Shown here: one piece after another, positions 8,212 through 52,655 of the stretch | Numbering within the stretch: position 1 is the stretch's first letter | Layout: the number at the start of each line of letters is the position of its first letter | Assembly (NCBI GenBank): GCA_038087875.1 | Contig: CM075996.1 | Span: 2,668,001-2,732,000 of the forward strand | Reading direction: 5' to 3' | Source: Malacoraja senta | Taxonomy: Eukaryota | DNA: 64,000 nucleotides | The notes under the pieces: generated by a model | Seen by the model: the letters and a program-made list of their open reading frames with translations, nothing else | Told to the model about the DNA's origin: nothing | Database searches by the model: none | Made by a program: the position numbers and the translations under genes

Positions 8212-8339
8212 CTACAGAATGAAGCAGCGACTCCGGCCTTTCTTAGCTGGTTGCTGGATCACAGCTCGGATTGCAGCGTCGAAGATGTCCTTCAGCCCGA
8301 TGTCTTTACGAGCAGAACTTTCAACGTATTTAAAAGCGC
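8212..8339 (-). CDS. Divergent Rac-like GTPase coding exon 6 with CAAX
   Basis: Acceptor ttgttttttgtaccactgcag; encodes AFKYVESSARKDIGLKDIFDAAIRAVIQQPAKKGRSRCFIL*; 128 nt. Exon total 576 nt = 191 aa + stop, with no frameshift or premature stop. Confidence 0.92.
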
Positions 8340-9271
8340 CTGCAGTGGTACAAAAAACAAGGAGCCTGGAGGTATGAGTATTGGAGAGGAAGGAACTGCA
8401 GATGCTGGTTTACACAATATGACGAGCGTTAGACAATAGACAACAGACAATAGGTGCAGGAGTAGGTGATTCGGCCCTTCGAGCCAGCACCGCCATTCAA
8501 TGTGATCATGGCTGATCATCCCCAATCAGTACCCCGTTCCTGCCTTCTCCCCATATCCCCTGACTCCGCTATCTTTAAGAGCCCTATCTAGCTCTCCCTT
8601 GAAAGCATCCAGAGAACCTGCCTCCACCGCCCTCTGAGGCAGAGAATTCCACAGACGCACAACTCTCTGTGTGAAAAAGTGTTTCCTCGTCTCCGTTCTA
8701 AATGGCCGACCCTTTATTCTTAAACTGTGTGTGTGTGGCCCCTGGTTCTGGACTCCCCAACGTTTGTCGGCGCCCTGTACATCGCTGGAGTTTAGAAGAA
8801 TGAGGGGGGGGGGACCTCATTGAAACTTACCAAATAGTGAAAGGCTTGGGTAGAGCGGATGTGGAGAGGATGTTTCCACTAGTGGGAGAGTCTAGGACTA
8901 GAGGTTACCGCCTCAGAATGAAAGGACGTTCCTTTAGGAAAGAGACGAGGAGGAATTTCTTTACTCAGAGGGTGGTGAATCTGTGGAGGTGAGAAGGCTG
9001 TGGAGGCCAAGTCAATGGATACTTTTATGGCAGAGATAGATAGATTCTTGATTAGTATGGGTGGCAGGGGAGAAGGCAGGAGAATGGGGTTAGGAGGGAG
9101 AGTTAGATTAGCCATGATTGAATGATGGAGTAGGTTTGATGGGCCGAATGGCCTAATTCTGCTCCTATCACTTATGACATGACTTATAACTCAGCGAGAC
9201 AGGCAGCATGTATGGTTATTCACTTGCACCTCCTCCCACCTCATCTACCGTATATCCGCTGTTCCGGGCGT

Positions 9272-9812
9272 GGACTCCAAATCTGAGGAAGGACATTATA
9301 GCCATAGAGGGAGTGCAGAGAAGGTTCACCAGACTGATTCCTGGGATGTCAGGACTTTCATATGAAGAAAGACTGGATAGACTTGGCTTATACTCGCTAG
9401 AATTTAGAAGATTGAGGGGGGATCTTATAGAAACGTACAAAATTCTTATGGGGTTGGACAGGCTAGATGCAGGAAGATTGTTCCCGATGTTGGGGAAGTC
9501 CAGGACAAGGGGTCACAGCTTAAGGATAAGGGGGAAATCCTTTAAGACCGAGATGAGGAAAAACTTTTTCACACAGAGAGTGGTGAATCTCTGGAACTCT
9601 GTGCCACAGAGGGTAGTTGAGGCCAGTTCATTGGCTATATTTAAGAGGGAGTTAGATGTGGCCCTTGTGGCTAAATGGATCAGGGGGTATGGAGAGAAGG
9701 CAGGTACGGGATACTGAGTTGGATGATCAGCCATGATCATATTGAATGGCGGTGCAGGCTCGAAGGGCCGAATGGCCTACTCTTGCACCTATTTTCTATG
9801 TATCTATGTATG
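9272..9812 (+). mobile_element. CR1-type LINE 3' fragment
   Basis: RT C-terminus EGVQRRFTRLIPGMSGLSYEERLDRLGLYSLEFRRLRGDLIETYKI..FFTQRVVNLWNS; (tatctatg)n tail. Confidence 0.92.
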
Positions 9813-10290
9813 TACAAGCACAGGCTCGGCGATCGTTTCGCTGAACACCTCCGCTCAGTCCGCCTAAACCCACCTGATCTCCCGGTCGCTCAACACTTTA
9901 ACTCCCCCTCCCATTCCCCACACTGGCCTTTCTGTCCTGGGCCTCCTCCACTGTCAGAGTGAGGCCCAGCAGCAAATTGGGAGGAACATGTTTCGCTTGG
10001 GCGGCTTACACCCCAGCGGTGCGGACATTGACTTGTGTAGGAAAGAACTGCAGATGCTGGTCTAAATCGAAGGTAGACACAAAATGCTGGAGTAACTCAG
10101 TGGGACAGGCAGCATCTCTGGAGATATTGACTTTTCTAACTTCAAGTGACCCTTGCTTTTCCCCCTCTCTCTCCATCCCTCCCCCTTCCTCATTCTCCCA
10201 CCAGTCTGACTGCCTCCTGAGTGAATTTTATCTCTATATTCTTCACTGTCACCCTCCCCGAGCTAACAACGATATATTCTATGTTTTGCT
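9813..10290 (+). mobile_element. Penelope-like element 3' fragment (GIY-YIG C-terminus), degenerate
   Basis: KHRLGDRFAEHLRSVRLNPPDLPVAQHFNSPSHS; upstream part at about 9215-9265 is separated by a CR1 insertion. Confidence 0.7.
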
Positions 10291-10699
10291 TGATGGTGTG
10301 TCTGAACCTGTACTGAAGGAGAATTGTGTTTACTGCAGTTTGAACAAGTCGGCTGGCATGAAACAGCTGGATAGCCACAAAACAGTCTTTGGACTTTAGA
10401 GATACAGCTCGGAAACAGGCCCTTCGTCCCACTAAACCCACGCCATCCCCATATCCTAATTTTTACCGAAGCCAATTAACCTACAAAACCCGCACGTCTC
10501 TTTGGAGCGTGGGAGGAAACCGGAGCACCCGGAGGAAACCCACCCGGGTCACGGGGAGAAGGTACAAAACTCCGTAGGGACAGCACCCGTGGTCGGGATC
10601 GAACCCGGGTCTCCGGTGTGTAGGATAGTGGTGGCGTACGGGTGATTGTTGGGTCGGCGTGGGCTCGGTGGGCTGGAGGAGGAAGCCCACCCAACGTAC

Positions 10700-10859
10700 C
10701 GATCTCCTTGGCTTTCTGCTCGCCCTCCTTGCAGCTGACGGGAGCCAAGTCGTTCTCCTTCAGCTTCTCAATGGTGTCCTTGTTGTCCCTCAGGTCCTTC
10801 TTGGTGCCCACCAGGATGATGGGACAGTTGGGGCAGTGATGCTTCACCTCGGAGGACCA
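10700..10859 (-). CDS. Divergent Rac-like GTPase coding exon 5
   Basis: Acceptor ttctccccgccacag; encodes [53 protein letters not shown](G); 160 nt; donor GTACGT. Confidence 0.93.
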
Positions 10860-11344
10860 CTGTGGCGGGGAGAAGTTCACAGGTTCACAGGAGCACAAAT
10901 AGGCCACTTGACCCATCCAATCTACCCCGCCATTCAATCATGGCTGATCTATCTCTCCCTCCCTCCCTCCCTCCCTCCCTCCCTCCCTCCCTCCCAACCC
11001 CGTTGTCATATGTTCGTGAATTCATAACATTTTCTGGCCATTTCATAATGAAACAAGAACATGTTCTTCAGATTCCAGAAGGAACCTGTCTCCTCCAGAT
11101 TCAGGGCATAGTTTCATCTCAGCTGTTATCGGTAGCGATGTTACAAAACCTACCTTCAGCGGCGCTGCGGTTCTGCCACTGGCCGCGTGCGCGACTTTGG
11201 CGCCATTGAGGGGGGGGGGATTAAAATGCCGTTTTCTCCTGCCCGTCGGAGTCGAACTTTCTCCGGCTGTTCAGCTGCTGCAGAAAAATCGCTCCGACTT
11301 CCGTTCTCGGAAGTTTAAAAAACCCAAAAACTATCATATGTGGC

Positions 11345-11697
11345 AACATAATTGTAGAAACTAATTGTTTCAGGACTGGGTGGGGGATGGTCAAGATTAT
11401 AAATAGTGATCTCCTTATTTCTTTTTATTTGTATTTTTATTCTCTTTTTCCTACTCTCTTTTCTTCAACTTTCTTCTTTCACTCTCTTTTTTTTCTTTTT
11501 CACACACTATATATCTCACTTTTTTCTATTCTTTATTATCTCATTTCTTTTTCTTATTTTTCTTTATTATAATTTTAAAAAAAGAAGATGTACATAAAAT
11601 GTATTATGCAAATATATATTAGGCGCTTGGGTGCCATATGACTGTACTCACTTCTAATAAAATAAAATATTTTTAAAAAAAAATAATAATAAAAAAT
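11345..11697 (+). mobile_element. L1-like 3' UTR/poly(A) fragment nested in an unclassified AT-rich repeat (about 11005-12441)
   Basis: Same architecture as 19180-19570 (G-rich patch, pyrimidine tract, acttctaataaa, A tail). Confidence 0.5.
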
Positions 11698-13097
11698 CAC
11701 GGGACAATTTAATCCCTGGAGTAAAATAAAAATCTACTTCTAACACCGTCAACGCCGATGACGGGACGGATCTCACGTATGGGACAAAAACATAATGTAA
11801 GTCGTTTATTTTACATATAAACTTGCTTCTTAGGATGACTTTAATCCAAATTTCATTGGCGAAAATGTGGTTTTGACCCCATACGAACCGGCAGTGTTTT
11901 TCCTGCCGATATGGGGTTCAAATTCACTGCAACCGCAACGTTCCAATCGATCGCGTTCCACAAAAAACCCACTCGCAAGATGATTAAAATGCCCATTAAT
12001 TTACGGGAATTAAACATTAAATTCCTTCCATTTGGCCTATAAATTCATGACAATGAGATTTAAAAATCATGTTATATTGTGAATTCTTGTGTGAATGTTA
12101 TTTGGACACTTAGGCTTTTTAAAAATGTTAACCTTTTCTTAAGAAATGGATAGATGTTTAGATCTAGTAATTGAATTTTGTAATTAGCTACAATTAGGTT
12201 AACTAATTATATGCTTTAATTTCAGGTCATCCAAGTAAGATTGTCTCATATTTGTTTCAGAATGCTTCAATCTATAATAATTGAAAATTTCATTCAGTTC
12301 TCTTAATTTTTAAGAAAGTTATGGGCTTTTGACTGTCCTCGATCACAGCTTTTGTGTTAAGTCAATGGAAAAGCAATAGGGAACAAGATGCTAATTTCAG
12401 AGTATGAAAATGGCCGTAACTTTTTTAATACTGAAGATATGAGGCAGAGAATTCCACAGACTCACAACTCTCTGTGTGAAAAAGTTTTTCCTCATCTCCG
12501 TTCTAAATGGCTTACCACTTATTCTTAAACTGTGGACCCTGTTTCTGGACTCCCCCAACATCGGGAACATGTCGAGACCCTTCTTCAGACTGAGAGTCAG
12601 GGGAAAGGGAAATGAAAGATATAGATGGTGAGGGCGGTTCTGAACTACTATCTATCTCATTTTAGCCCCTTAGACTATTTTTGATCAGACCTCACTGGAC
12701 TTTATCTTGCACTAAACATTATTCCCTTCATCATGTATCTGTACACTGTGGACGGCTCGATTGTAATCATGTATTGTCTTTCCGCTGACTGGTTAGCACG
12801 CAACAAAAGCTTTTCACTGTACCTCGGTACACGTGACAGTAAACTCAACTAAACTGAACCAGACTAAACTAAATGAAACTTTGGGTTGTGGGAGGAAACC
12901 GAGAGCCCCCGGAGGAAACCCACGCAGGTCACGGGAAGAACGTACAAACTCCGCACAGACAGCGTCCGTAGCCAGGATCGAACCCGGGGTCTCCGGTGCG
13001 GTGAGGCAGCAACTCTACCGCTGCGCCACCATGCCGCCCTGACATGTATATTCATAACTCGTGCTTCATTGGTAGGTAAAGTGTGAATTAATTAGAT

Positions 13098-13286
13098 CAG
13101 TGGTTCCCAACCTTTTATAGTTCATGGCCCCCTTGGGCTCTTTTATTTTTCTGTGCCCCCCCCCCCCTGACATTATTAGCGGAAAAAAAGTGGGCCCCCT
13201 TCATTGAACCTGTGGCCCCCTAAATCCCCAAATTTTTCTGTGGCCCCCCTGAAATTAACCATATGGCCCCAGGTTGGGAATCGCTG
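13098..13286. mobile_element. hAT (Charlie-like) MITE
   Basis: TIRs cagtggttcccaacc / ggttgggaatcgctg; 8-bp flanks aattagat / aattagaa (7/8 match). Confidence 0.8.
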
Positions 13287-13775
13287 AATTAGAACACTCA
13301 TTTACATAGATTTGTGTTCAGTTAATCCATTAAAATGTCCTCAACTTTGAATATGTTGCCTGAAAAAAATGTTGATATATATGCGGTGATATATGTTTGT
13401 ATTTGGCCCGGTGGAGCAGCGGTAGAGTTGCTGCCTCACAGCGCCAGAGACCCGGGTTCGATCCCGACTACGGGTGCTGTCTGTACGGAGTTTGTACGTT
13501 CTCCCCGTGACCTGCGTGGGTTTTCTCCGGGTGCCCCGGTTTCCTCCCACACTCCAAAGACGTACAGGTTTGTAGGTTAATTGGCTTCGGTACAAATGTA
13601 AAAATTGTCCCCCGTGTGTGCGGGATAGCGTTAGTGTGCGTGGGGATCGCTGGTCATCGGTGGGCTGAGGGGTTTAGACTAAACTAGATGTGCGTACTGA
13701 TAGCTTCAAGAAGAGCAGGGGGATGTATCTGATCAATCAAACATCTGAGCAAATTGGTGGGATCTCGGCTCTTAC

Positions 13776-13838
13776 CTTCAGCTGGACATTCATGAATGAG
13801 ACAGGGTTGACCAGGGAGAAACAGATGACAAATACATC
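13776..13838 (-). CDS. Divergent Rac-like GTPase coding exon 4
   Basis: Acceptor ccttttcctcttttccag; encodes DVFVICFSLVNPVSFMNVQLK; 63 nt; donor GTAAGA. Not visible in the supplied ORF track. Confidence 0.92.
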
Positions 13839-14371
13839 CTGGAAAAGAGGAAAAGGCAATGAAGACTCCAGTCATCCAGTGAGGAACCCAGAGTGAGACA
13901 GCACGGAAACAGGCCCTTCGGCCCAACTTGCCCACACCTGCCAACAATGTCCCAGCTACACTAGTCCCACCTGCCCGCGCTTGGTCCATATCCCTCCAAA
14001 CCTGTCCTATCCGTGTACCTGTCCAAATGTCTTTCAAACATTGCGATAGTCCCTGCCTCATCTACCTCCTCTGGCAGCTTGTTCCATACACCCACCACAG
14101 TCAGACAGGTACATGGATAGGACAGGTTTGGAAGGATATGGACCAAGGTGGGACTGGTGTAGATGGGACATGTTGGCCGGTGTGGGCAAGTTGGGCTGAA
14201 GGGCCTGTTTCTTTGCTGTATCACTCTATGACTGTATGAGGGGGGGGAGAAGGAGGGGGGGGAGGTGGGCGAGGGGGGAAAGGGGGGCGAGGGGGGCGAG
14301 GGGGGGAGAAGGAGGGGGGAGGGTTGTCGTGTGGGAGAATGGGGAGGAGATGGCTGTGCGGACATTCTTAC

Positions 14372-14489
14372 AGTCTGGGGGTAAGAGAGTGGCCGCAGCC
14401 GGTCGTAGTCCTCCTGTCCCGCCGTGTCCCACAGCCCGAGAGTGACCACCACATCATCGACCGTCACCGTGGTAGAGTAGTTGTCAAAG
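14372..14489 (-). CDS. Divergent Rac-like GTPase coding exon 3
   Basis: Acceptor ttctatccgcag; encodes [39 protein letters not shown]; 118 nt; donor GTAAGA. Confidence 0.93.
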
Positions 14490-14516
14490 CTGCGGATAGA
14501 ATGCAACGATCAGTCT

Positions 14517-14664
14517 CGCATGCGGTGAAACGTCACGCAACCGTCACACGCCAGTCCCGCATGCGGTGAAACGTCACGCAACCGTCACACGCCAGTCCCG
14601 CACGCGGTGAAACGTCACGCAACCGTCACACGCCAGTCCCGCACGCGGTGAAACGTCACGCAAC
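14517..14664. repeat. 41-bp tandem repeat, about 3.6 copies
   Basis: cgca(t/c)gcggtgaaacgtcacgcaaccgtcacacgccagtcc repeated. Confidence 0.9.
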
Positions 14665-16785
14665 TCTCAAACCGACACGAAGTGCTGGAGTAACTCAGCC
14701 GGTCAGAAAAGTGCAGGAAGGACCAGCGGACGCTGGTTTAATCCGAAGATAGACACAGGCAGCATCTCTAGAGAGAAGGAACGGGTGACGTTTCGGGTCG
14801 AGACCCTTCTTCAGTCTGATTTTGTGCCTGTCTTCGATTTAAACCAGCATCTGCAGTTCCTTCCTGCACGTGATTAGTGACACCCCTACTGTTGGACTTG
14901 ACTCTTAAACCCCTGAGGGAAAATTATTTCCAAAGATCCTTACTTGCAGGTGAATTGAGCCAGCGTTCAGAGTGGCTCTTTCCGCGCCGACCAGCGATCC
15001 CCGCACTCTAACGCTATCCTACACACACTAGGGACTATTTAAAAATTATACCAAGCCAATTAACCTACAAACCTGTACGTCTTTGGAGTGTGGGAGGAAA
15101 CCGGAGATCCCAGAGAAAACCCACGCAGGTCACGGGGAGAACGTGCAAACTCCGTACAGACAGCGCCCGTAGTCGGGATCAAACCCGGGTCTCCGGCGCT
15201 GTGAGGCAGCAACTCTGCCGCTGAGATGGGCCGAATAAATTTGACTATTTCTTGTCTCTCGCTCCCCACACTGTCTCTGTTAGTGACCGCATGCAAATCT
15301 CTCCCGCCACGCCCTGGTTTGTTCCACCACTTCCTGCCTCAAGTTCCCATGGCAACGACCAGGGGGGGGCGGAAATCCCCGGGGGGTACAGGGGGGACCC
15401 GTTTCCCCCCCCGCCACCTCCTGCATTGAGAGGTGGGGGACGATCCCCCCCCATTTTTTGTAATACGGACTTTATCTGCCTCTTTACATAGAAACATAGA
15501 AAATAGGTGCAGGAGGAGGCCATTCGGCCCTTCGAGCCAGCACCGCCATTCATTGTGATCATGGCTGATCATCCCCAATCAATAACCCGTGCCTGCCTTC
15601 TCCCCATATCCCTTGACTCCACTAGCCCCTAGAGCTCTATCTAACTCTCTCTTAAATCCATCCAGTGATTTGGCCTCCACTGCCCTCTGTGGCAGGGAAT
15701 TCCACAAATTCACAACTCTCTGGGTGAAAACGTTTTTTCTCACCTCAGTCTTAAATGACCTCCCCTTTATTCTAAGACTGTGGCCCCTGGTTCTGGACTC
15801 TTTCTAAAGGATGAATCGGCCCGTTCGCGGGGCCTTTCATCGCCCGGCGCGGCTTAAAATCAAACTGCTGCATCGAGGCGATCGAGGCTCCCGATGTTGA
15901 AGCCCCCGCCGGCCGATGAAAGACCCCGTGTACGGGCCGATTCAAGCCCCACGATTATGGGGCTGCCGAAGCTGCTGTTGCTGTTGCCCACGGCCGAAGC
16001 CTCGCGTGCGTGTGTGTGTGTGTGTCCCCTGCATGTTTTAATAATAATAATAATAATCATTTTATTTACTGGCGCCTTTCTAAAACCCAAGGACACCTTA
16101 CAATGCATAGAATCACAACAAAACAAAAAAAACACATAATCGGAATAAATTAAATTAAAAAAAAAAAAAAAAAAAAATTTAAATAATAATAATAATAAAT
16201 AAAAAATAAAAAATAAAAAAATTCCGTGCCTGGCGAGGTCAGAACTAAATTAAACTAAATTAAGTTGAATGATGAGTCGGCCCGGGTGCTGGACTGCACA
16301 CAAAGCCCAGCCGGCAGGCCAGCTGAGGAGTTTTGGCTCCCGTCCAACTCATGAACCGATGATCGGCCCATGAGAAGGAGGGGTGGTGGTGGTGGTGGTG
16401 GTGGTGTCGGCGGCAAGCGAAGGTCCGAAGGTCGGACAGCTGGGCCGGGCTGCCGACCGACCGACCGACGGGGCCACGGGCGAGGCGTTGCTGCTGCTGC
16501 TGCTGCTGCACTCCACGGGCTGCACTACGTCGGGACGGGTGAGGCGGGGGCCGGACACGACAGTCCCCTCGACCCGAGTAGTAGCGGTCAAATACGGGAC
16601 AAGGGCGGTCCCGTACGGGACAAACCAATTTAGCCCAATATACGGGATGTCCCGGCTAATACGGGACAGTTGGCGACCCAAATCCAGGATCAGCTTCCTC
16701 CCCACTGTTATCAGACAGGGCGGCAGAATGAAACATAACCGATACAAATCGCCGGCAAGGAGCTGACGGAGAAGTATATACTCAC

Positions 16786-16857
16786 ACGGTGGGAATGTAC
16801 TCCTCTGGGAAGGTGTGGGTGGTGTAGGTGATAAGGACAGAGGTCTTCCCAACGGCC
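16786..16857 (-). CDS. Divergent Rac-like GTPase coding exon 2
   Basis: Acceptor tctttctctcctcctgtag; encodes AVGKTSVLITYTTHTFPEEYIPT(V); 72 nt; donor GTGAGT. Confidence 0.93.
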
Positions 16858-17537
16858 CTACAGGAGGAGAGAAAGACGGAGGTGTCAACAGCGGAGCCGG
16901 CCCCACGGTGTTGTTTCCGCACTATTATTGGTTGTCCCGGAGACAGACACAAAATGCTGGAGTAACTCAGCGGGACGGGCAGCATCGGTGGGGAGAAGGG
17001 ACGGGCGACGTTTCGGGTCTTGACCCCGACGACCTTGACCTGACCAAGAATAAGGGGTAAACCGTTTAGAACGGAGACGAGCAAACACTTTTTCTCACGG
17101 AGAGTGGTGAGTCTGTGGAATTCTCTGCCTCAGAGGGCGGTGGAGGCGGATTCTCTGGATACTTTCAAGAGAGAGCTAGATAGGGCTCTTAAAAATAGCG
17201 GAGTCAGGGGATATGGGGAGAAGACAGGAACGGGGTACTGATTGTGGATGATCAGCCATAATCACAGTGAATGGCGGTGCTGGCTCGAAGGGCCGAATGG
17301 CCTACTCCTGCACCTATTGTCTATTGTCTATTGTCTATTGAGTTACTCCAGCATTTTGTGTCTATCTTCAGTTTAAACCAGCATCTGCAGTTCCTTCCTG
17401 CACTTTAATGTCTGTGTGTGTGTTTCATACATGTGTTTGCATGTATGTGTGTATGTATGTATGTATATGTATGTAGACACAAAATGCTGGAGTAACTCAG
17501 CGGGTGAGGCAGCATCTCTGGAGGGAAGGAATGGGTG

Positions 17538-17793
17538 ACGTTTGTATGTTTGTATGTATGCATGTTTGTATGTTTGTATGTATGCATGTTTGTATGTTTG
17601 CATGTATGCATGTTTGTATGTTTGTATGTATGCATGTTTGTATGTTTGTATGTATGCATGTTTGTATGTTTGTATGTATACATGTTTGTATGTTTGTAAG
17701 TTTGCATGTTTGTATGTTTGTATGTATGCATGTTTGTATGTTTGTATGTATGCATGTTTGTATGTTTGTATGTATGCATGTTTGTATGTTTGC
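17538..17793. repeat. 24-bp simple repeat (tgtttgtatgtttgtatgtatgca)n
   Basis: About 10 tandem copies. Confidence 0.92.
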
Positions 17794-18818
17794 AGACACA
17801 AAATGTTGGAGTAACTCAGCGGGACAGGCAGTAATGACATTTAACTTTCTAAATGTAACCACCAAAAAGCTTAATAGCCTAAAACATGGTTATCTGATCA
17901 ACGGGCGTTGGAGGCTCAGTTAGTTCCCCAAATAGAAGGCTTGGGCAAAGAGCAAAATAGCTTTCGCACCGTATCTTGCAAAGCAGCTTGGGTGGGATAT
18001 CAAACAGGTCCTTCGGCCCATCGCCCAGGGGGAAGGATACAGGTGGAAGGGAATGGGGGGAGGGGGGGATTAGGGAATGTGGACCCATTTCACCCTTTCT
18101 CCTTCCCCCCCTGTCCTCTCCCACCTATATTCCTCCGAAGATAGGCACAAAAAGCTGGTGTAACTCAGCGGGACAGGCAGCATCTCTGGAGAGAAGGAAT
18201 GGGTGACGTTTCAGGTCGAGACCGTTCTTCAGACATATATATATATATATACATACATATGTACGCATATATATATGTATATGCATATATGCATATGTGA
18301 TTGTGCATAGTATGTGTGTGTATGTATATTTATATATACGTGTGTGTATATATTTACATGTCTATATTTACATGTGTGTGTGTGCGTGTGTGTGTATTAA
18401 TGAATTTAACTAAACTGAACTAAATAAACAGAGTGCTGAATAGATTGTTATAGCGACAGAAAAGTGCAGATGATTAAAAAACGTACAAAAGCTGAAACTG
18501 GGAGATCAGGATTACACCCTTGGTGAGGACTGTTCTCGGTGCTGGCTCGAAGGGCCGAATGGCCTACTCCTGCACCTATTGTCCAATAGACTTGAGACGT
18601 TAGACTTTAGAGACACAGGCCCTTCAGCCCGTCGAGTCCGTGCCGACCAGCGATCCCCGTACACTAGCTCTATCCTACACACGCTGGGGACAATTTACAA
18701 CCTTTTACCGAAGCGAATCGACTTACAAACCTGCAGGTCTTTGGAGTGTGGGGGGGGTGGGGGGGGGGGGAAACCGGAGCACCCGGAGAAAACCCACGCG
18801 GGTCAACAGCAGTAACCT

Positions 18819-19569
18819 ACTATAGCGCACTCATTTGTTTTCTGTACAAAAATTCAAAAATTTTGGAATGAAATTTTCGAAATCTTTACAAACTTATTTA
18901 AAATAAGACTGATACCCAAAGCAGAATGGATTATCTTCGGAACAACGGAAGATGGTCCAGAACTAAATGTGTTTCAAAAGAAACTAATAGACTATGGGTT
19001 AATAACTGGAAAAAAGCTAATCCTAAAATTGTGGAAGAAGGCTCCAATACCAACTATAAACATGTGGATTTCAAATATGTTCGAAACATTACACCTTGAA
19101 GAGGTAAGACTCCTCCTGGCAGGTAAACCAGATCACTTCCACCTGACGTGGTCGGCATTTATAGAATTATTACAAATATAGGGTGCAAAGGTACCTTAAA
19201 AAAACTGAGGTCAGGTAAGGGGGGATGCTAGTTGAAGAGTTGGTATGTCCCATTTACGTAATGCTCATAAAAATATTTGATTTTCTCTTTCTCCTCTTTC
19301 TCTTTCTCTTTCTTTTCTAGGGTCTATTTCTTAACTCTTTTTCTTTTGTTTTTAATTTTGCTCTTATAGAGTCTTCGTCCTTTTTTGTTGCCACACTTTC
19401 TACACTCTCACTTTTTCCTTCACTTTCTTCTTTCTTTCAATCTTTTCCTTTTCTAGTGTAAAAAATAAATGGAGTACATTAATTGTAAGAAGACATAAGT
19501 GACGAGTACTAATGTATGTGGTTGTAATGTAATGTACTTCTAATAAATAAAAATTAAATTAAAAAAAAA
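18819..19569 (+). mobile_element. 5'-truncated L1-type LINE with poly(A) tail and TSD
   Basis: Open frame 18819-19181 (TIAHSFVFCTKIQKFW..GKKLILKLWKK..W..W, like an L1 ORF2 C-terminus), pyrimidine-rich 3' UTR, AATAAA plus A tail, 11-bp duplication agcagtaacct at 18808-18818 and 19570-19580. Confidence 0.85.
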
Positions 19570-19679
19570 AGCAGTAACCTCAGGAGAGGAAGGAAGGGGG
19601 AGTGGGAATAGCATTGGGAAGATGGAATACCAGGGATAGTCCTTGCACCGCGGGTAGAAGCATCGGAGTCGGCACTCAC

Positions 19680-19714
19680 CCATCACCCACCACCACACAC
19701 TTGATACTTTTCAT
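19680..19714 (-). CDS. Divergent Rac-like GTPase coding exon 1
   Basis: Minus strand ATG AAA AGT ATC AAG TGT GTG GTG GTG GGT GAT GG = MKSIKCVVVGD(G), 35 nt, donor GTGAGT. An in-frame ATG 6 nt upstream (19720, ggggATGg context) could add MV. Confidence 0.9.
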
Positions 19715-19935
19715 CACCATCCCCGCGCCGCGCGCTTGCGGTTCCCCCCTCTGTCAGACGTCGGTCTAAGTCGCGTTCCCCCTCTCTCCTCACTCGCTCC
19801 CCTCGACTCCGAACCCCGGCTCGACTCTGCTCCACCCGCGAGCTTGGAGATTCCCTGGATATCGGTCTCCACCTCCCCGATCCGTTCTCAGCGGAAGGAA
19901 TACTGATTCGCTCGACCAACGTCCCCAACGGCCAC
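19715..19935 (-). promoter_or_regulatory. CpG-rich 5' UTR/promoter of the divergent Rac-like gene
   Basis: GC/CpG-rich non-repetitive sequence immediately upstream of exon 1; ETS-like CAGGAAGT nearby at about 20012. Confidence 0.45.
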
Positions 19936-29476: not shown

Positions 29477-29511
29477 ATGCAGGCAATTAAATGTGTGGTG
29501 GTGGGGGATGG
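29477..29511 (+). CDS. RAC2: Rac GTPase (RAC2-like) coding exon 1
   Basis: ATG CAG GCA ATT AAA TGT GTG GTG GTG GGG GAT GG = MQAIKCVVVGD(G), 35 nt, followed by donor GTAAGT; canonical vertebrate Rac exon 1 size. Confidence 0.9.
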
Positions 29512-32500
29512 GTAAGTTGACTTCAAAATTTCTTTAAAAGTTTGTTTTAAAAAAAAGTTGGTAAAAAGTTTTCTCCCCCCCCCCCCCCTCCCCTGTGTTC
29601 TTGTTACTTAATCTTGAGGGGCAGTGGAAATTGGGGTGTCAATTCTTCTGACAAAAGAGATTTAAATTTGTATTTGTTTTGTCATGTTATATGTGTTGGA
29701 AGATGATCTTAAGAAAAATAATATCATCCTCTTCTGTTTCCCCTTTTCTCAGCAATTTCTGCTTGCGGTTACTCGATGACATTTACCCTCTCTTGTTACA
29801 AAAAAGAAAAATTCCCACTGTGTTTTTTAATGGGCTGGAAACAATTTCAAATTCTTTGTGTCTGAGTCCCCCCCTCTCTCTCTCCCTCTCCCTCTCTCTC
29901 TGTGTCTCTTTTTCCACATCTGTCTCTCTGGAGCGTATGTATTCATGCTCCTCATCTGTTTTTAATGACCGGATTAGACAGCGGATTAAAATACCCTGGC
30001 ACCGTTTGTCAGTTTAGAAATACTTGAGCAATTTTTTTTTCCCTTCTCTTTGGTGTTACAATAACGAAACTACAAGTGCGATTCGAAACGAGGTCACAGC
30101 CTCAGAATTAAAGGACGTTCTTTTAGGAAGGAGATGAGGAGGAATTTCTTTAGCCAGAGGGCGGTGAATCTGTGGAATTCTTTGCCACAGAAGGCTGTGG
30201 AGGCCAAGTCGGTGGATATTTTTAAGGCTGAGATAGATAGATTCTTGATTAGTATGGGTGTCAGGGGTTATGGGGAGAAGGGGGTTAGGAGAGAGAGAGA
30301 GATAGATCGGCCATCATTGAATGGCGGAGTAGACTTCATGGGCCGAATGGCCTAATTCTGCTCCTATCATCTTATAATTGCCTTATGCAGGTAATGCTTC
30401 TTACAGAGAGTGTTGGAGTGTTGGACTATCGGCTTCTGACAGAGAATGATATAAGGATCTAATACTACTGAAGGTAGACACAAAATGCTGGAGTAACTCA
30501 GCGGGATAGGCGGCATCTCTTGGGGGAGAAGGAATGGGTGACGTTTCGGGACGAGACCCGACCCGAAACGTCACCCGTTCCTTCTCTCCAGGGATGCTGC
30601 CCGTCCCACTGAGTTACTCCAGCATTTTGTGTGTCTATCTCCGGTTTGAACCGGCATTGGCAGTTCCTTCTTGCGTGTTTCGTCTGAAACTTCTGACGTA
30701 CTTGAGAATTGCAACACCCACCGACCCACACTCTTGGCTTCCAGAAAGTGAACTATCTTTTTCTGACATCCAACAAGTTTGGTTTTAAAAGCATGTGGTC
30801 GCAATATTTAAAAATCGCCTTCCCGTTTAGATTCTATGGACCTCGAGAAGGAGCGGGCGGGATCTGGTGGACATTTTAAAGAACCTATAACCTATAGACT
30901 ATAGGCGGATGTTAGGGTGAAAAGATTTTTGCACTTGACCAGAAGGAGTTGATTTGGATGGGTGTAAAAACCGAAAATCAATTTCTTCTTCACCTCCCCA
31001 CCCCCTCCTTCCTCATTTCCTGCCCCTTCGCCCAAGTCAATAGACAATAGACAATAGGTGCAGGAGTAGGCCATTTGGCCCTTCGAGCCCAGCACCACCA
31101 TTCAATGTGATCATGGCTGATCATCCCCAATCAGTACCCCGTTCCTCCCTTCTCCCCATATCCCCTGACTCCGCTATTTTTAAGAGCCCTATCTAGCTCT
31201 CTCTTGAAAGCATCCAGAGAACCTGCCTCCACCGCCCTCTGAGGCAGAGAATTCCACAGACTCACCACCCTCTGTGAGAAAAAGTGTTTCCTCGTCTCCG
31301 TTCTAAATGGCTTACTCCTTATTCTTAAAGTCCTCCCCCTCTCCCTCAAGTTCCTGTATCTCGCCCCCCCCCCCCATTCTGAGTGGTGTCCTTGAGTAGT
31401 ATTTAATTTCCTCTTATCCCCCAAGGATTCAGTTTAGTTTATTGTCACGTGTACCGAGGTACAGTGAAAAGCTTTTGTGCGTGCTAACCAGTCAGCGGGA
31501 AGACAATACATGATTACAATCGAGCCATTTACAGTGTACAGATACATGATAAGGAAATAATGTTTAGTGCAAGGTAAAGCAAGTAAAGTCTGATCAAGGA
31601 TAGCCCGAAGGTCACCAATGAGGTAGATAGTAGTTCAGGACTGCTCTCTGGTTGTGGTGGGATGGTTCAGTTGCCTGATAACAGCTGGGAAGGAACTGTC
31701 CCTGAATCTGCAGGTGTGTGTTAGTTTTCAAAACTTCTGTACCTCTTGCCCGATAGGAGAGGGGAGAAGAGGGAGTGGCCGGGGTGCGACTGGTCCTTGA
31801 TTATGCTGCTGGCCTTGCCGAGGCAGCGTGAGGTGTAGATGGAGTCAGTGGAAGGGAGGTTGGTTTGTGTGTGATGGTCTGGGCTGCGTCCACAATTCGC
31901 TGCGATTTCTTGCCCTCCCTTCCCCTTCCTTTATCTTCCCCTTCCCCCCATTCCCTCCCCCACAACCCCCCCCTCAAGTTCCTTACCACCCCCTCCCCAT
32001 TCTCAGTGCTGTCCCTGCGTAATATTTAATTTCCTCCCTCCCACCAACCCCCCTCCATCAAAATCCATTTCTCTCCTTGCACTTTATGGGGCCTTGGTGT
32101 GCGTAACTTTGCCCCTCTGATGTAACTTGCCCTGTCCCCCAAGGCTGTGGATGGGGAAAGATGTGGGCAAATGGGGCTAGAATGGATGGGGCATCTCAGT
32201 CTAGATGCGTTGGGCCGAATGGCCTGTTTCCATGCTCCATGACTCTGCGACTGTTCGAATCCTGAAGTGGTGAAATGCAAAATTATTATTATTTTTTTCT
32301 TTAATGTTTAATAGGTCTGTGTTAGCTGAACTAGGATGGTTTGTAACAAGATGGGACTTCTCCCCATCTGAGCTACTCCTCCCTGTGGACAGTGTATTGA
32401 GCAATGTTTAGGAATTGGATAGGGTGTTGGGTGATACGTGACCAACCATGAAGTTGTACAGCATGGAAACAGGCCCTTCGGCCCACCTTGTCCATTCTGG

Positions 32501-33181
32501 GCTAGCCCCATTTGGCCCATTGGACGAGAGGGGATCTTATTGAAACATGTGAGATTGTTAAGGGTTTGGTCACGCTAGAGGCAGGAAACATGTTCCCGAT
32601 GTTGGGGGAGTCCAGAACCAGGGGCCACACAATTTAAGAATAAGGAGTAAGCCATTTAGTATGGAGACGAGGAAACACTTTTTCTCACAGAGAGTTGTGA
32701 GTCTGTGGAATTCTCTGCGTCAGTGGAGGCCGGTTCTCTGGATACTTTCAAGAGAGAGCTAGATAGAGCTCTTAAAGATAGCGGAGTCAAGGGATATGGG
32801 GAGAAGGCAGGAACGGGGTACTGATTGGGGATGATCAGCCATGATCACATTGAATGGCGGTGCTGGCTCGAAGGGCCGAATGGCCTACTCCTGCACCTAT
32901 TGTCTATTGTGTATTGTGTATTGTGTATTGACTCTAAACCTTTCCCGTCCCTATTTCTGTCCAGATGTCTTTTACAAGTCATAACACCACCTTCAAAACG
33001 CTGAAGAAGGGTCCCACCCTGAAACAGCACCTATCCATGTTCTCCAAAGATGCCGCCTGGCCCGCTGAGTTACTCCAGCACACTGTGACTTTTTTTCTTT
33101 TTTTGCAAACCAGCATCTGCAGTTCCTGGTTCCCTCCAGAAGAAACTTGTTGTCAAGAGTGAGAGAGGGTGGAGGGGCAGT

Positions 33182-33716
33182 AGATACATAGATACATAGA
33201 AAATAGGTGCAGGAGTAGGCCATTCGGCCCTTCGAGCCTGCACCGCCATTCAATATGATCATGGCTGATCATCCAACTCAGTATCCCGTACCTGCCTTTC
33301 TCCATACCCCCTGATCCCTTTAGCCACAAGGGCCACATCTAACTCCCTCTTAAATATAGCCAATGAACTGGCCTCAACTACCCTCTGTGGCCGAGAGTTC
33401 CAGAGATTCACCACTCTCTGTGTGAAAAAGTTTTTCCTCATCTCGGTCTTAAAGGATTTCCCCCTTATCCTTAAGCTGTGACCCCTTGTCCCTGGACTTC
33501 CCCAACATCGGGAACAATCTTCCTGCATCTAGCCTGTCCAACCCCTTAAGAATTTTGTACGTTTCTATAAGATCCCCCCTCAATCTCCTAAATTCTAGCG
33601 AGTACAAGCCAAGTCTATCCAGTCTTTCTTCATATGAAAGTCCTGACATCCCAGGAATCAGTCTGGTGAACCTTCTCTGCACTCCCTCTATGGCTATAAT
33701 GTCCTTCCTCAGATTT
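33182..33716 (-). mobile_element. CR1-type LINE 3' fragment (same subfamily as 9272-9812)
   Basis: Near-identical reverse-complement copy with the same tail. Confidence 0.9.
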
Positions 33717-36700
33717 GCACTCCCTCTATGGCTATAATGTCCTTCCTAGACAAACTAGGAGCGCTGAGGATTCTGTGTGGTCATTCTGTGATCCTGGATG
33801 GGGTCACAGAATGACTACACATCTTTTCTGGAAGACAGACACATAAATGCTGTAGTAAAGGGCGTGTTCTTCAGTTCTTCAAAACTCCAAGTTCAGTCTG
33901 GTGGTGGAAGCAGACACAATAGTGGGATTTAAGAGGCGTTTGGATAGGCACACGGAGAGGCAGGGAACGGGAGGCATCTGGATCACATGCAGGCAGAGGA
34001 GAACAATTCATCTTGGCGTCATGTTCAGCACAGGCAATGTGGGCCGAAGGGCCTGTTTCTGTGCTGTACTGTTCTATGTGTAGGAAGGAACTGCAGATGC
34101 CTGGTTTACAACGAAGACAGACACAAAATGCTGGAGTAACTCAGCGGGGACGGCCAGGCAGCATCTCCGGAGAGAAGGAACGGGTGACGTTTGGGGTCGA
34201 GACCCTTCTTCAGACTGAGAGTCAGGGGAGAGGGAGACACAGAGATAGAGATGGTGATAATAGACAATAGACAATAGACAATAGACAATAGGTGCAGGAG
34301 TAGGCCCTTTGACCCTTCGAGCCAGCACCGCCATTCAATGTGATCATGGCTGTTCATCCCAATCAGTACCCCGTTCCTGCCTTCTCCCCATATCCCCTGA
34401 CTCCGCTATTTTTAAGAGCCCTATCCAGCTCTCTCTTGAAAGCATCCAGAGAACCTGCCTCCACCGCCCTCTGAGGCAGAGAATTCCACAGACTCACCAC
34501 TCTCTGTGAGAAAAAGTGTTTCCTCGTCTCCGTTCTAAATGGCTTACTCCGTATTCTTAAACCGTGTGTGGCCCCTGGTTCTGGACTCCCCCAACATCGG
34601 GAACATGTTTCCTGCCTCTAGCGTGTCCAAGCCCTTAACAATCTTTATATGTTTCAATGAGATTCCCTCTCATCCTTCTAAACTCCAGAGTGTACAAGGC
34701 CCAGCGTCTCCATTCTCTCAGCGTATGACAGTCCCGCCATCCCGGGAGTTTTACACTGTGGAGTGGTAGAACAAATGAATGAAAGATATCCAGAAAAGAA
34801 AAGATGATAAAGGAAACAGGCCCATTGTTAGCCGAGAACGAGTTACAGACCCGAAACGTCACCCGTTCCTTCTCTCCGGAGGTGCCTCCTGTCCCGCTGA
34901 ATTACTCCAGCACTTTGCCTCTATCTTGGGTGTAAACCAGCATCTGCAGTTCCTTCCTACGCATATGATCTCTGAAGAAGGGCGTGTTCTGATCTGAACG
35001 CAGTCGAAGGCAGGAAGTAGAAAATATTCAGCCTCATCCCCCCAATGATTAGATTTCCTTTGACACAATATTTCGCTTACAACCCGAATATTGACTTGTC
35101 TAACTTCAAGTAACTCTTGTCTCTCTCTCCATCCCCTCCCCCACCCGACTAGTTTCACCATCCTCCTGATTCATTTTACTGTGTCAACTTCCCCTCTGCC
35201 CACAATGAGCCATTCTACATTGCCTTGTACATCGTCTGCTTTGATCTGTCCTTTTCACACCTTGCCCCTCCATATCTCCAGTTTTCCCTTTCCCCTGACT
35301 CTCAGTCTGAAGATGGGTCTCGACCCGAAACGTCTCTCCAGAAATGCTGCCCGTCCCGCGCTGAGTTACTCCTGCATTTTGGTGTAAACCAGCATCTGCA
35401 GTTCCTTCCTACACAGGCTCGTTGAATTGGGGTGAGATGGTTGTAGCGTTGAGGGCGTGAGCTCCATCAGCCTCTAAACCCCAGTAGATAAGCAGACAGC
35501 TTGCCAGGAAGCTCACACTTCCGCCGAGACTAGGTACTGAGCTGCTTGCTGCCCCATGCATGCACACTTCTGCTTAATCCCTGCAGAAAACAAGCACTCG
35601 TTGCCTTTTCAGTTTTAAAAAAAAAAAAGCACCTTTCATCAACCCGAGAATGTCCCAAAGTACTTTTTTTTCCCATTTCAGTTCAGTTCAGTTTAGTTCA
35701 GAGATTCAGCGCAGAAACAGTCCCTTCTGCCCACCGAGTCCGCGCCGACCAGCGATCCCACACCGTCCCACACACACTGGGGACAATTTACAATTTTATA
35801 CCGAAGCCAATTTACCCACAAACCTGCACGTCTTTGCAGTGTGGGCGGAAACCGGGGCACCCGGAGAAAACCCACGCGGGTCACATGGAGAAGGTACAAA
35901 CTCCGTACAGACAGTACCAGTGGTCAGGATGGAACCCGGGTCTCTGGCGCTGTGAGGCAGCAACTCTACCCGCTGCGCCACCGTGACGCCCGATAATTCT
36001 CGGTGGTCCCCTTTGTGTTCACCATCGGGACCCAGTATTGTCCCTCTGTTGTCTTTTATCCTGTTGTGTAATGATAAACAGTACAGAAGCTCCAGCCTAG
36101 ATACCAACTTGAACAGACATCCCCATTTCCCTCATTTCACAACATATCTTTCGTTATATAAAATGCCCCAGCTTGTATAACAAACCACTGTGGTTTATAT
36201 GTATTGCCAATAAGCCGTTTGGCACAACTTGTCAGTTCCACACATGACCTGTCTATCGTTCAGTTTAATTTATTGTCACGTGTAACGAGGTACAGTGAAA
36301 AGCTTTTTTGTCGCGTGCTAACCAGTCAGCGGAAAGACAATGCAGGTTTAAGAAAGAACTGCAGATGCTGGAAAAATCGAAGGTAGACAAAAATGCTGGA
36401 GGAACTCAGCGGGCGAGGCAGCATCTATGGAGCGAAGGAAATAGGCGACGTTTTGGGGTCGAGACCCTTCTTCAGACTTAGAGTCACGGGGAAAGTGGAA
36501 CGTGAGATATAGACGGGACTTAAGAGGAATGAATGGAGGATACGCAGAAAGCAATGATGGTCAAGGAAATGTGTAGCACGCATTGGAACGGTGGCGCAGC
36601 GGTGAAGTCGCTGCCTCACGGCGCCAGAGACCCGGGTTCGATCCTGACTACGGGTGCTGTCTGTACGGAGTTTGTACCTTCTCCCACGTGGTTTTCTCCG

Positions 36701-37400
36701 AGATCTTCGGTTTCTTCCCACACTCCAAAGGCATGCAGGTTTGTAAGTTAATTGGCTTGGTATAGGTGTAAATTGTCCCAATAGTGTGTGTAGGATAGTG
36801 TTAGTGTGCGGGATCCGCTGGTCGGCACGGACTCGGTGGGCCGAAGGGCCTGTTTCCGTGCTGTATCTCTAAACTAAACTAATTGGCCATTGTCGGCCGT
36901 GGGATAGGGGATAACGAGTATACAGACAGAGGAACTCAACAGGACAACAGTAAAACTGGTATAGAAGTTGGGATGTATAAAATCATGAGAGGAATAGATC
37001 GGGTAGACTCACACAGTCTCTTGCCCAGGAGTAGGGGAATCGAGGACCAGAGGACACGGGTTTAAGGTGAAGGGGGAAAAGATTTAATCGGAATCTGAGG
37101 GGTAACATTTTCACACAGAGGGTGGTGGGTGTATGGAACGAGCTGCCAGAGGAGGTAGTTGAGGCAGGGACTATCCCAACGTTTAAGAAACAGTTAGTCA
37201 GGTACATGGATAGGATACGTTTGAAGTGATATGGACCAAACGCCGGCTGGTGGGACTGGTGTAGCTGGGACACGTTGGCCGGTGTGGGCAAGTTGGGCTG
37301 AAGGGCCTGTTTCCACGCTGTGGCTTAATTCCTTGTGTAGACAAAAATGCTGGAGAAACTCAGCGGGCGAGGCAGCATCTATGCAGCGAAGGAAATAGGT

Positions 37401-37428
37401 GACGTTTCGGGTCGAGACCCTTCATCAG
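37401..37428 (-). ncRNA. Minimal hammerhead-ribozyme-like motif in Penelope terminal repeat (representative of many copies)
   Basis: Minus strand reads CUGAUGA-A-GGG UCUCGA CCC-GAAAC GUC: both conserved hammerhead core boxes, a stem II and a palindromic ACGU minimal stem III. Stem I is weak. Confidence 0.5.
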
Positions 37429-40400
37429 TCTGAAGAAGGGTCTCGACCTGAAACGTCACCTATTCCTTCGCTCCATGGATGCTGCCTCACCCGCTGAGTT
37501 TCTCCGGCATTTTTGTCTACCTTCGATTTTTCCAGCATCTGCAGTTCCTTCTTAAAGATAAATAGTTCCTTGTGCATGTGCCTTTATTAACCTCGTGCTT
37601 ATCAAAGTCTCAGACGTGTCGAAGTGTTTCACTTCAACAATGTCCTCCAGACACTTGAGACAGTCATCTAATGAAGTGGCCTAGATAGTGAGCGGAAGAA
37701 GATTTGTTGGTCCGTGACAACAAACTTCAAATGGTGTATTCTGCAGAGAATCCCTTCAGGAATCCTTAACTGTAACCCCACCCCAGCACCTAAATAAGAC
37801 AAACAAGCTTGTTAAATCTTGCACGCAGATTCTGCTGCCTCTGGCCTGAAACACACGAGCTGATCAATGATTTATCCTTCCAAGAATTCTTATTGCACGT
37901 TTGGAGGCCCTTCAGCACATCAGGTCCATACTAGCTCTGTCTGTCTGATTCTGTGTGAAAGGAAAAAGATAGACGCAAGATGCTGGAGTAACTCAGCGGG
38001 ACGGGCAGCATCTCTGGAGAGAAGGAGTGGGTGACGTTTCGGGTCGAGACCCTTCTTCAGTCTTGACCCGAATAAGTCTTGAGGAAGGGTCTCGACCCGG
38101 AACGGCACCCATCCCTTCTCTCCAGAGATGCTGCCTGTCCCGCTGAGTTACTCCAGCTTTTTGTGTCTAACTCAGCAGTGTTTCCTGTTCAACATGTGTT
38201 GCTGTAAAGAGAAGTTCCCTAAACTTTTCCAACAAGTTTTAGGACTGAAGTCAGCTTACCCTGTGCGTTACAAACGCCCCGCCCACGTTTGAGTGGCCCT
38301 TTGCATACCAATTCTATTAGAAAATCTGACTTTTTTTCCCCTCGTGAACATACTGTAATGTTTAATTTTGTATTAAACTCTCTGTTTCGTTTGGCCAAAG
38401 GTAATGAACAGGATTTGTTTGGAATTATTTGCAGTCAGTTCATCCCTGGCAACTGTGGTACTATAAATCCCTGCTAAGGTCATCAGTGATAGGGGCAGAT
38501 TTAGGCCATTCGGCCCATCAAGTCTACTCCGCCATTCAATCATGGCTGGCCTATCTCACCCTCCTAACCCCATTCTCCTGCCTTCTCCCCATAACCCCCC
38601 GACACCCGCACTAACCTTCGTCTCCACACACTTGGGACCACAGTGTCACTGGGTTGGCAGATTTTCTAGATTATTTTGTAACATGAAGATTACATTTTAT
38701 ATCAATATCATTTAAGGGCATTAAAACCTCAACTGCCTGAAGCTGCTGCCTCACAGCGCCAGAGACCAAAGTTCAATTTAGACCTTGGGTGCTGTCTGCA
38801 CGGAGTTTGCAGGTTCTCCCCGGAGCTGTGTGGGTTTCCTCCAGGTGCTCCGGTTTCCTCCCACATCATAAAGACTTGCATTTGTGGGCCTCTGAAAATG
38901 TCGGGAGGCGCAGCGGTAGAGTTGCTGCCTCGCAGCGTCAGGGACCCGGGTTCGATCCTGACTACGGGTGCTGTCTGTACGGAGTTTGTACGTTCTCTTG
39001 GGGTTTTCCCCGAGATCTTCATTTTTCTCCCACACTCCAAAGACGTGCTGGTTTGTTGGTTAATTGGCTTGGTATAAATGTAGATTGTCCCTAGTGTGTG
39101 TAGGATAGTGTTAGTGTGCGGGGATCGCTGGCTGGCGCGGACCCTGTAAGCTAAAGGTGTAGTCCCAATCTTCCAACCTACCTCATTCCAGACCTTGCAC
39201 TTTTCCTCAGTAACTAAAGCTATAAAGCCGTAAAAAACGATCTTCTGCCCCCTGGTATTTTTCTCTGCGCTTTGCCTGTTGCTTGATCATACTTGTGTGT
39301 GTATGATTCGACTTGACTTACAGCGCATACAGTTTTTCACAGTATGTTTGGGACTCGTGACAATAATAAATGCACACAGAATAAATCCTCATGCCTTTTC
39401 CTCGACCTCTACCTGAAGGATGTGTGGGCGCAGCGGTAGAGTTGCTGCCTCACAGCGCCGGTTCGATCCTGACTCCCGGTGCTGTCTGTGTGGAGTTTGT
39501 ACGTTCTCCCCATGACCCAGGTGGGTTTTCTCCGGGTGCTCCGGTTTCCCCCCACACCCCAAAGACGTGCGGGTTTGTGGGTTAATTGTCTTCGGTGAAA
39601 ATTGTACATTGTCCCCAGTGTGTGTGTAGGATGGTGTTAGTGTGCGGGGATCGCTGGTCGGCACGGACTCGGTGGGGCCGAAGGGCCTGTTTCCTGTGCT
39701 GTATCTCTAAACTAAACTAATTGCCGCTGCTTCGAGGCAGTTCCAGAGGTTGTTTGAGCGTTCGTTCCAACCACACCTTATCTCCAACAGGAAGAAACTC
39801 GCTGTAAAACCACCCTGTTGCAACTTTTAAACTGACTGCTCTTCCGGCCAAAGGGGGGAAAGAGAGGGAAAAAACTGCCACTGCCATATCGAGGTTTAGT
39901 TTAGTTTAGACATACAGCGCGGAAACAGGCCCTTGGGCCCAACGAGTCCGCGCCGACCCGCAGTCCCCGCTCACTAACACTATCCTACACACACTCGGGA
40001 CACTCGGCACGGTGGCGCAGCGGTAGAGTTGCTGCCTTACAGCAAATGCAGCGCCGGAGACCCGGGTTCGATCCCGACCACGGGTGCTGCCTGTACGGAG
40101 TTTGTCCGCTCTCCCCGTGACCTGCGTGGGTTTTCTCCGGGATCTTCGGTTTCCTCCCACACTCCAAAGACGTGCAAGTATGTAGGTTAATTGGCTTGGT
40201 AAATGTAAAATTGTCCCTGGTGGGTATAGGATAGTGTTCAGTGTAAACTAAAAAAAAAGTTACAATTTTACCAAGCCATCTCTTTGATGCTTTCAAGAGA
40301 GAGCTAGATAGGGCTCTTAAAAATAGCGGAGTCAGGGGATATGGGGAGAAGGCAGGAACGGGGTACTGATTGGGGATGATCAGCCATGATCACATTGAAT

Positions 40401-46315: not shown

Positions 46316-46333
46316 CACAGCCACTGTTTGTAA

Positions 46334-46444
<111 letters not shown>

Positions 46445-46984: not shown

Positions 46985-47236
<252 letters not shown>

Positions 47237-49018: not shown

Positions 49019-49159
<141 letters not shown>

Positions 49160-50422: not shown

Positions 50423-50436
50423 CACAGGTTAGCTGA

Positions 50437-51488
<1,052 letters not shown>

Positions 51489-52624: not shown

Positions 52625-52655
<31 letters not shown>

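Follow-up and report, generated by a model that had tools for sequence, protein, structure and literature searches.

Few signalling proteins are as strongly conserved as the vertebrate Racs. In the 64,000-nucleotide stretch of the skate Malacoraja senta analysed here (the window; contig CM075996.1, positions 2,668,001 to 2,732,000), a six-frame motif scan finds two divergently oriented sets of Rac exons, a canonical Rac on the plus strand (the neighbour) and a divergent Rac on the minus strand (the paralog). The question raised by this locus is whether the paralog is a working GTPase, where it came from and what its changed residues do. The best explanation, favoured here with moderate confidence, is that it is an intact chondrichthyan Rac, likely a local duplicate, that would keep a normal GDP/GTP switch and would no longer activate NOX2.

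The paralog is almost certainly a real, functional gene. Exon mapping and translation give a coding sequence of 576 nt, an open frame for 191 amino acids divided among six minus-strand exons, and all five introns are GT-AG. This agrees exactly with the original prediction, in which six GT-AG exons of 35/72/118/63/160/128 nt were spliced into an uninterrupted 191-aa GTPase. The exons of the neighbour (35/72/118/63/160/131 nt) have identical boundaries and phases, as had been proposed. An in-frame upstream ATG at 19718-19720, two codons before the ATG at 19714, gives an MVMKS start as in the Amblyraja and Leucoraja models. The G1-G5 motifs and the Rho insert align to the neighbour without gaps, and the C-terminus is KKGRSR-CFIL, with four K/R among the last 14 residues. 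The Amblyraja orthologue matches the Ras-family domain in Pfam (PF00071, E 2.4e-50). The best PDB matches by bits are Rac1 (291), Rac2 (280), Rac3 (280), RhoG (253) and Cdc42 (249).

The paralog and the neighbour share 125 identities over the first 177 residues, the number previously counted by hand; a global alignment gives 128. By the Nei-Gojobori (NG86) method, the nonsynonymous and synonymous divergences (dN and dS) of the pair are 0.21 and 1.35, a dN/dS of about 0.15; maximum likelihood (ML) dS is saturated. A simulation of neutral decay by substitutions only was run at three distances (d = 0.3, 0.5 and 0.67), and each time 0 of 20000 genes kept the start, the frame and the ten splice dinucleotides. 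Both results bear out the proposal of purifying selection rather than decay. Residues 31-41 and 53-78, described earlier as conserved, are the same in this copy as in the canonical rows, as are residues 28-29. The best reading of the gene is an old Rac paralog under purifying selection.

Protein and profile searches return orthologues from 21 named chondrichthyan species (7 batoids, 13 sharks and one chimaera), and no bony-vertebrate member surfaced in them. A search with exon 5 recovers RefSeq models of Amblyraja (94% over the exon), Pristis, two Mobula, Rhinoraja and Hemitrygon, with Leucoraja added via a cluster; the 13 shark species, which we take to represent six orders, were added by a search with the Pristis protein. 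The chimaera copy, Callorhinchus XP_007910146.1, emerges among the best 120 of 8000 candidates scored with a profile of 18 orthologues, at 382 bits against 356 or fewer for ordinary single-domain Racs. No bony-vertebrate orthologue is among these 120 matches, and absence from bony vertebrates is thus not proven; the only bony-fish rows above 356 bits there are two models with internally repeated segments (P0044 and P0037). Identity of the paralog protein is 98.3% to the Amblyraja model and 98.9% to that of Leucoraja. Across 20 paralog rows, 112 of 177 positions are invariant, and the motif [FY][IV]ESSA is present in 29 of 439 collected proteins, every one chondrichthyan.

Each of the five trees joins the window gene to the orthologues in a single clade, in which the chimaera branches first, followed by the sharks and batoids. 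Support in the first tree, a quick tree of 53 rows, is 100 by the Shimodaira-Hasegawa-like approximate likelihood ratio test (SH-aLRT); in the four later trees, which used 25-31 of those rows, it is 99/100, 100/99, 100/100 and 100/100. A bat RAC1 row consisting of residues 61 onward was used in the first three trees and replaced in the last two. CDC42 is in none of the trees, and RHOJ and RHOQ were not placed in them. The clade joins none of RAC1, RAC2, RAC3 and RhoG, and its members are Rac-type rather than RhoG-type. The fourth Rac type of the original prediction is a distinct clade, and it is wider than had been claimed, spanning chimaera, sharks and rays. Of the differences between this copy and canonical Rac, about 40% arose later, along the branches to rays and skates. 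Chimaeras and sharks parted about 400 million years ago, so the gene is at least that old.

The RefSeq models of cartilaginous fishes (XP_032869226.1, XP_055519340.1, XP_067875686.1, XP_007910146.1 and others) are the same gene as the paralog, and carry only automatic labels, 'RAC1' or 'RAC1-like'. The chimaera record is named plain 'RAC1', and comparative or immune work on sharks can take it for the true orthologue; the annotation is corrected here. No description of the clade is found in the open full-text literature, a scope outside which most subscription literature lies, and the main text of the whale shark genome paper contains no Rac term. The clade is probably new in print, its gene models being already in RefSeq under automatic names.

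The 20 paralog rows were compared with 19 canonical vertebrate RAC1/2/3 rows over 177 positions, with the frog row left out and the bat RAC1 row again beginning at residue 61. The canonical rows are invariant at 157 of these positions, and at 19 positions the two sets share no residue. At six positions each set is invariant, but for a different residue (S22T, G30E, M45T, L79V, R102K and C157S). Position 27 is D, T, E or L in the paralog rows (12, 4, 3 and 1 rows) and never A; position 178 is F, Q or L (13, 4 and 3) and never C. Neither A27 nor G30 is carried by any of the 20 paralog rows, whereas both are present in 18/18 canonical and 8/8 invertebrate rows. C157 and C178 are absent from all 20 rows, and C18 is absent from three (the skate rows, C18S). 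N26H and N52T occur in 4/20 rows; M45T is fixed. The changes cluster at 22-30, 42-52, 133-145, 155-163 and 177-179, and many changed sites (27, 49, 50, 139-145 and 160) vary among orthologues. In this copy G12, K16/T17, F28, P29, Y32, T35, D57-Q61, K116/D118 and S158/A159 are unchanged, as are all the marks of atypical Rho proteins (G12, A59, Q61, F28 and P29); L117K and L160R lie near the base pocket. In the profile alignment, 9 of 12 shark rows have the switch II change R66K.

Several of these positions have been studied in Rac itself. A27K and G30S Rac, preactivated or not, fail to bind the NOX2 phox complex, and C18S and C157S Rac are redox-inert (PMC8353492). A27 and G30 set the selectivity of CYRI-B for Rac over Cdc42, whose residues clash there, and the authors extend this to WAVE (PMC7955166). 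The IQGAP1 hotspots on Rac are 25/26, 45/52 and 74 (PMC8625570). C178 is the palmitoylation site, electrophiles form adducts with C157 and C178, and the C178S change reduces GTP loading but hardly affects localisation (PMC4326178, PMC12581661).

A mechanism consistent with these positions can be proposed. Local duplication of the neighbour would have produced an extra Rac common to chimaera, sharks and rays. Its conserved catalytic and nucleotide-contacting residues would allow it to bind and hydrolyse GTP. A regulated GTPase cycle is expected, since this copy keeps these residues, the switch I core, W56 and switch II as in canonical Rac; the retention of W56 and switch II predicts that guanine nucleotide exchange factors (GEFs) and GTPase-activating proteins would act on it. 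The CAAX box ending in L predicts geranylgeranylation and membrane anchoring. A bulky or charged residue at 27 together with Glu30 would block p67phox binding and would probably block CYRI/WAVE binding, while loss of C157 and C178 (and of C18 in skates) would remove redox activation and palmitoylation. Signalling through CRIB-type effectors such as PAK is likely retained, with switch I 31-41 intact. Such a Rac would neither assemble NOX2 nor react to the superoxide that NOX2 makes, and its output would be split off from the respiratory burst. The paralog is probably uncoupled from NOX2, a reading drawn from other substitutions in human Rac.

Several points weigh against this explanation. The published mutants are A27K and G30S, which are not the residues present in the paralog, and the C157S redox result comes from one paper (PMC8353492). 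C178S in mouse heart barely altered raft partition or the proximity proteome (PMC12581661). The diagnostic changes were chosen after the fact from 19 positions. E30 is also present in the M. senta RhoJ/Q-like gene and in a RhoB-like gene, and RhoG likewise lacks G30 and C178. With regard to parentage, none of the five free trees recovers the paralog as sister to the neighbour, the paralog is about equidistant from all canonical Racs (70.6-71.2%), and the adjacency of the two genes is seen in the M. senta genome only.

The same states in other Rho subfamilies mean that the changes may be drift to generic Rho states, which makes relaxed drift a serious rival. Under it, the paralog is a Rac duplicate that is restricted in its tissues and partly redundant, whose constraint is real but relaxed, whose unneeded surfaces have drifted and which has no new job. 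This is unlikely. The acceleration on the stem counts for the favoured explanation: compared with the neighbour and with amphioxus as the outgroup, the paralog has 42 changes against 4 (p 2e-8), and shark and chimaera copies have 28:6 and 29:6 in the same comparison. Relaxed drift is favoured by the further rise in rate within batoids and skates (with Heptranchias as the reference and the chimaera as outgroup, Pristis has 13:1 and this copy 28:2); the Tajima counts for the long stem and the renewed acceleration together are 42:4, 28:2, 13:1 and 17:2. The variation among orthologues at many changed sites is as expected of a relaxed duplicate, and poeciliid and catfish lineages hold independent fast-evolving Rac duplicates. 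Against relaxation, the six sites noted above are fixed for the new residue in 20/20 rows from chimaera to skate, and the shark copies are 86-95% identical to the Heterodontus copy.

The uncoupled Rac favoured here has a broader form, which is put forward tentatively. In it, the clade is a fourth vertebrate Rac subfamily that every cartilaginous fish has kept and that bony vertebrates lost or never had, NOX2-blind, redox-inert, non-palmitoylated and with its own cellular job. If this is true, a fourth subfamily splits the cytoskeletal output of Rac from its oxidative-burst output. The paralog has changed the residues that biochemists mutate to cut Rac from NOX2 and redox control, and it is a natural experiment on which surface serves which output. 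It is a testable addition, a gene duplicate within a known system.

On the protein data, the parent of the paralog cannot be named, and sisterhood with the neighbour is neither shown nor rejected. In the approximately unbiased (AU) test, a grouping of the two has p 0.046 with 31 rows and p 0.30 with 25 rows, once the RhoB outgroup and a poeciliid row that misled the analysis had been removed; a grouping of paralog, neighbour and poeciliid row has p 0.093. The paralog is nonetheless likely a local duplicate of the neighbouring RAC2-type gene. The original prediction of an old, local, inverted duplicate of RAC2 is upheld as to age and stays a proposal as to descent from RAC2; the neofunctionalisation that it also invokes may be read from the fixed residues. 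The ATGs of the two genes are about 9.8 kb apart, which makes them a divergent pair rather than a tight pair sharing a bidirectional promoter.

A less probable origin is an older gene that predates the split between cartilaginous and bony vertebrates and was lost in the latter, in its strongest form an intron-bearing sister or parent of intronless RHOG. The position of the clade is unsettled in all trees, a grouping with RhoG is not rejected (AU p 0.37, 31 rows), and the residue comparison finds no RAC1/2/3-specific residue that ties the paralog to one of the three. This origin is quite unlikely given the other comparisons. The paralog is closer to the neighbour (70.6% identity) than to M. senta RhoG (61.6%). 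Of the 19 diagnostic sites, no more than 1 to 3 show the paralog state in any one RhoG row, and A27 and C157 are retained in both RhoG rows. When the RhoB outgroup is left out, the paralog sits with the vertebrate Racs, apart from RhoG and the invertebrate Racs, with weak to moderate support (51/40, 58/93 and 74/92).

It is improbable that the paralog is a dominant-negative or decoy Rac, which would use its intact W56 and switch II to bind GEFs and the guanine nucleotide dissociation inhibitor, and would dampen the neighbour without signalling of its own. Mutations of T17 and D118 are classic dominant negatives, and T17, D118 and switch I 31-41 are all intact in the paralog. The retention of regulator-facing residues and the loss of several effector-side residues and cysteines are in line with a decoy, as is the lowered GTP loading described for Rac1 that has lost C178. 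A pseudogene or assembly artefact is barely credible: the assembly is incomplete and RAC3 was not found in it, but the gene has an open frame, intact splice sites and a dN/dS of about 0.15, is 98-99% identical to the annotated genes of two skates and has orthologues in 21 species.

The features of the locus are listed below.

Coding exons of the two Rac genes and a candidate polyadenylation signal (positions in the window)
Feature	Position	Strand	Remarks
Paralog coding exon 1	19680..19714 (35 nt); feature to 19720	-	ATG at 19714; start matches Amblyraja and Leucoraja models
Paralog exon 2	16786..16857 (72 nt)	-	P-loop end and switch I start; C18S, S22T, N26H, A27T, G30E
Paralog exon 3	14372..14489 (118 nt)	-	beta2-beta3 hairpin changed at 42, 43, 45, 48-50, 52; W56 and switch II unchanged
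Paralog exon 4	13776..13838 (63 nt)	-	L79V, E91M
Paralog exon 5	10700..10859 (160 nt)	-	G4 motif TKKD and Rho insert region
Paralog exon 6	8212..8339 (128 nt)	-	G5 region ESSARK (C157S, L160R), C178 lost, basic tail, CAAX box CFIL, stop
Candidate polyadenylation hexamer ATTAAA	7499..7504	-	708 nt beyond paralog stop
Neighbouring canonical Rac, 192 aa, probably RAC2	29477..54415	+	exons 29477-29511, 46372-46443, 47056-47173, 49019-49081, 50461-50620, 54285-54415

The neighbour is probably RAC2, by synteny. Over 177 positions it is 96.6%, 96.0% and 94.9% identical to the RAC1, RAC2 and RAC3 rows. It has the RAC2 marks S107 and a weakly basic tail (three basic residues in the last 14) and is without S48, L145 and D150. 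It never groups with bony-vertebrate RAC2 in the free trees, and the AU test does not reject that grouping (p 0.22 and 0.33). In four trees it is paired with a Poecilia RAC1-like protein (86; 88/88; 95/89; 94/89). A separate 'RAC4' lineage was considered and rejected: the shared residue M152 is present in only 2 of 11 single-domain poeciliid proteins, and the pairing is therefore likely convergence. A HMMER scan with the last exon of the neighbour finds no closer orthologue among the best 150 of 913 matches. Its residues T146, M152 and R153 are in no other canonical vertebrate row examined, its tail is acidic, and its last splice acceptor is purine-rich and weak-looking.

In 360 kb of flanking sequence, the top-scoring unmasked frames contain Pfam domains of ankyrin+patatin, GAT, galectin, SH3, Ostalpha and kinase type. 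Matches were obtained for 15 of 29 frames in the first set (one of them weak, probably chance, and inside the window) and for 1 of 7 flank frames in the second. We take these domains to be PLA2G6, GGA1, LGALS1/2, BAIAP2L2, TMEM184B and CSNK1E, the RAC2 block of human 22q13. Further flank frames without a Pfam match, L012:5442-5603 (-), L045:5246-7831 (-) and L053-L057 (+), presumably resemble a CYP3/thromboxane-synthase-type P450, DLGAP5 and PPP6R2. The flanking domains, read as above, place the locus in a RAC2-type block. Of the RAC2 neighbours named with the original prediction, CYTH4 was not found beside the locus; SSTR3 and C1QTNF6 were not searched by name. Searches for Sec7, a CYTH exon and Fringe on the locus contig are empty for CYTH4 and MFNG. 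This says little, because expected paralogs are missing elsewhere in the genome too: a whole-genome search gives a single exon match of CYTH type and, for Fringe, a single clear locus with several exons. RAC3 was not found in the M. senta assembly, although it is present in a ray and in sharks. The assembly looks incomplete, with GC-rich genes of small chromosomes seemingly under-represented in it or in the search, and a separate RAC2 beside CYTH4 may therefore exist. Elsewhere in the genome, a RAC1-like gene adjoins a Sec7 gene (contig C5), and RhoG is a single intronless 191-aa open frame (contig C7). Two intronless RhoB-like genes lie in tandem on the same strand about 30 kb apart (L027 and L028; G000:C1100).

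About 62% of the window is repetitive, with numerous fragments of reverse transcriptase from long interspersed nuclear elements. Tandem arrays lie around and between the two Rac genes at 6000-7438, 17540-17792, 21603-22391 and 25280-25896, with periods of 26, 24, 20 and 12/2 bp.

Synonymous divergence between the paralog and the neighbour, earlier described as heavy in exons 2-4 and 6, does spare exon 5, where 31 of 34 same-residue codons are identical against 34 of 85 in the other five exons. Among three Rac genes (10700-10859; 50461-50620; L021:5210-5368), 72-91% of exon 5 codons are identical, against about 40% in other exons, and the paralog and the neighbour share a 31-nt exact match. Identical codons number 25/34 for the paralog and RAC1 (Fisher p 0.11) and 34/47 for the neighbour and RAC1. 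Gene conversion in exon 5 is not established, as six of the seven sites uniting the paralog and the neighbour are G/C against A/T and GC bias could explain them. The silent conservation could reflect GC bias, a splicing or RNA element, or gene conversion.

Several orthologue records carry isoform names X1-X3; models with such names usually rest on RNA sequencing. Pristis isoform X1 (P0003) has a 19-residue insert following T75, presumably with the position and length of the Rac1b exon. No match to four database inserts of this type was found in intron 3 of the paralog or of the neighbour. The Mobula hypostoma X2 model (P0004) is without exon 4 and the Stegostoma X2 model is also 171 aa, and exon-4 skipping is possibly recurrent among orthologues.

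The paralog resembles RAC1/2/3 in its six coding exons with identical boundaries and phases, its G1-G4 motifs, switch I 31-41, W56, switch II, insert region, basic tail and CAAX box, and its top PDB matches. It differs from them in identity, which is about 71% for this copy and 75-79% for those of sharks and the chimaera, where the neighbour reaches 95-97% with the RAC1/2/3 rows, and in the replacement of A27, G30, M45, K49, P50, C157, T161, C178 and P179 in all orthologues. RHOG is likewise Rac-related, at about 70% from canonical Rac, and is without G30, P50 and C178; unlike the paralog, which has five introns and 61.6% identity to it, RHOG is intronless and keeps A27 and C157. The M. senta gene that bears FPEEY at 28-32, which we take to be RHOJ/RHOQ (TCL/TC10), shares that segment with the paralog, but its exon breaks fall near 41-43, 60, 117 and 149 rather than at 12, 36, 75, 96 and 150. 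Poeciliid and pangasiid RAC1-like duplicates are likewise extra, fast-evolving Rac copies; they never join the paralog clade in four trees, and the poeciliid row keeps A27, G30 and C157. By exon structure and core sequence, then, the paralog is a Rac that lacks the A27/G30 and cysteine marks of RAC1/2/3.

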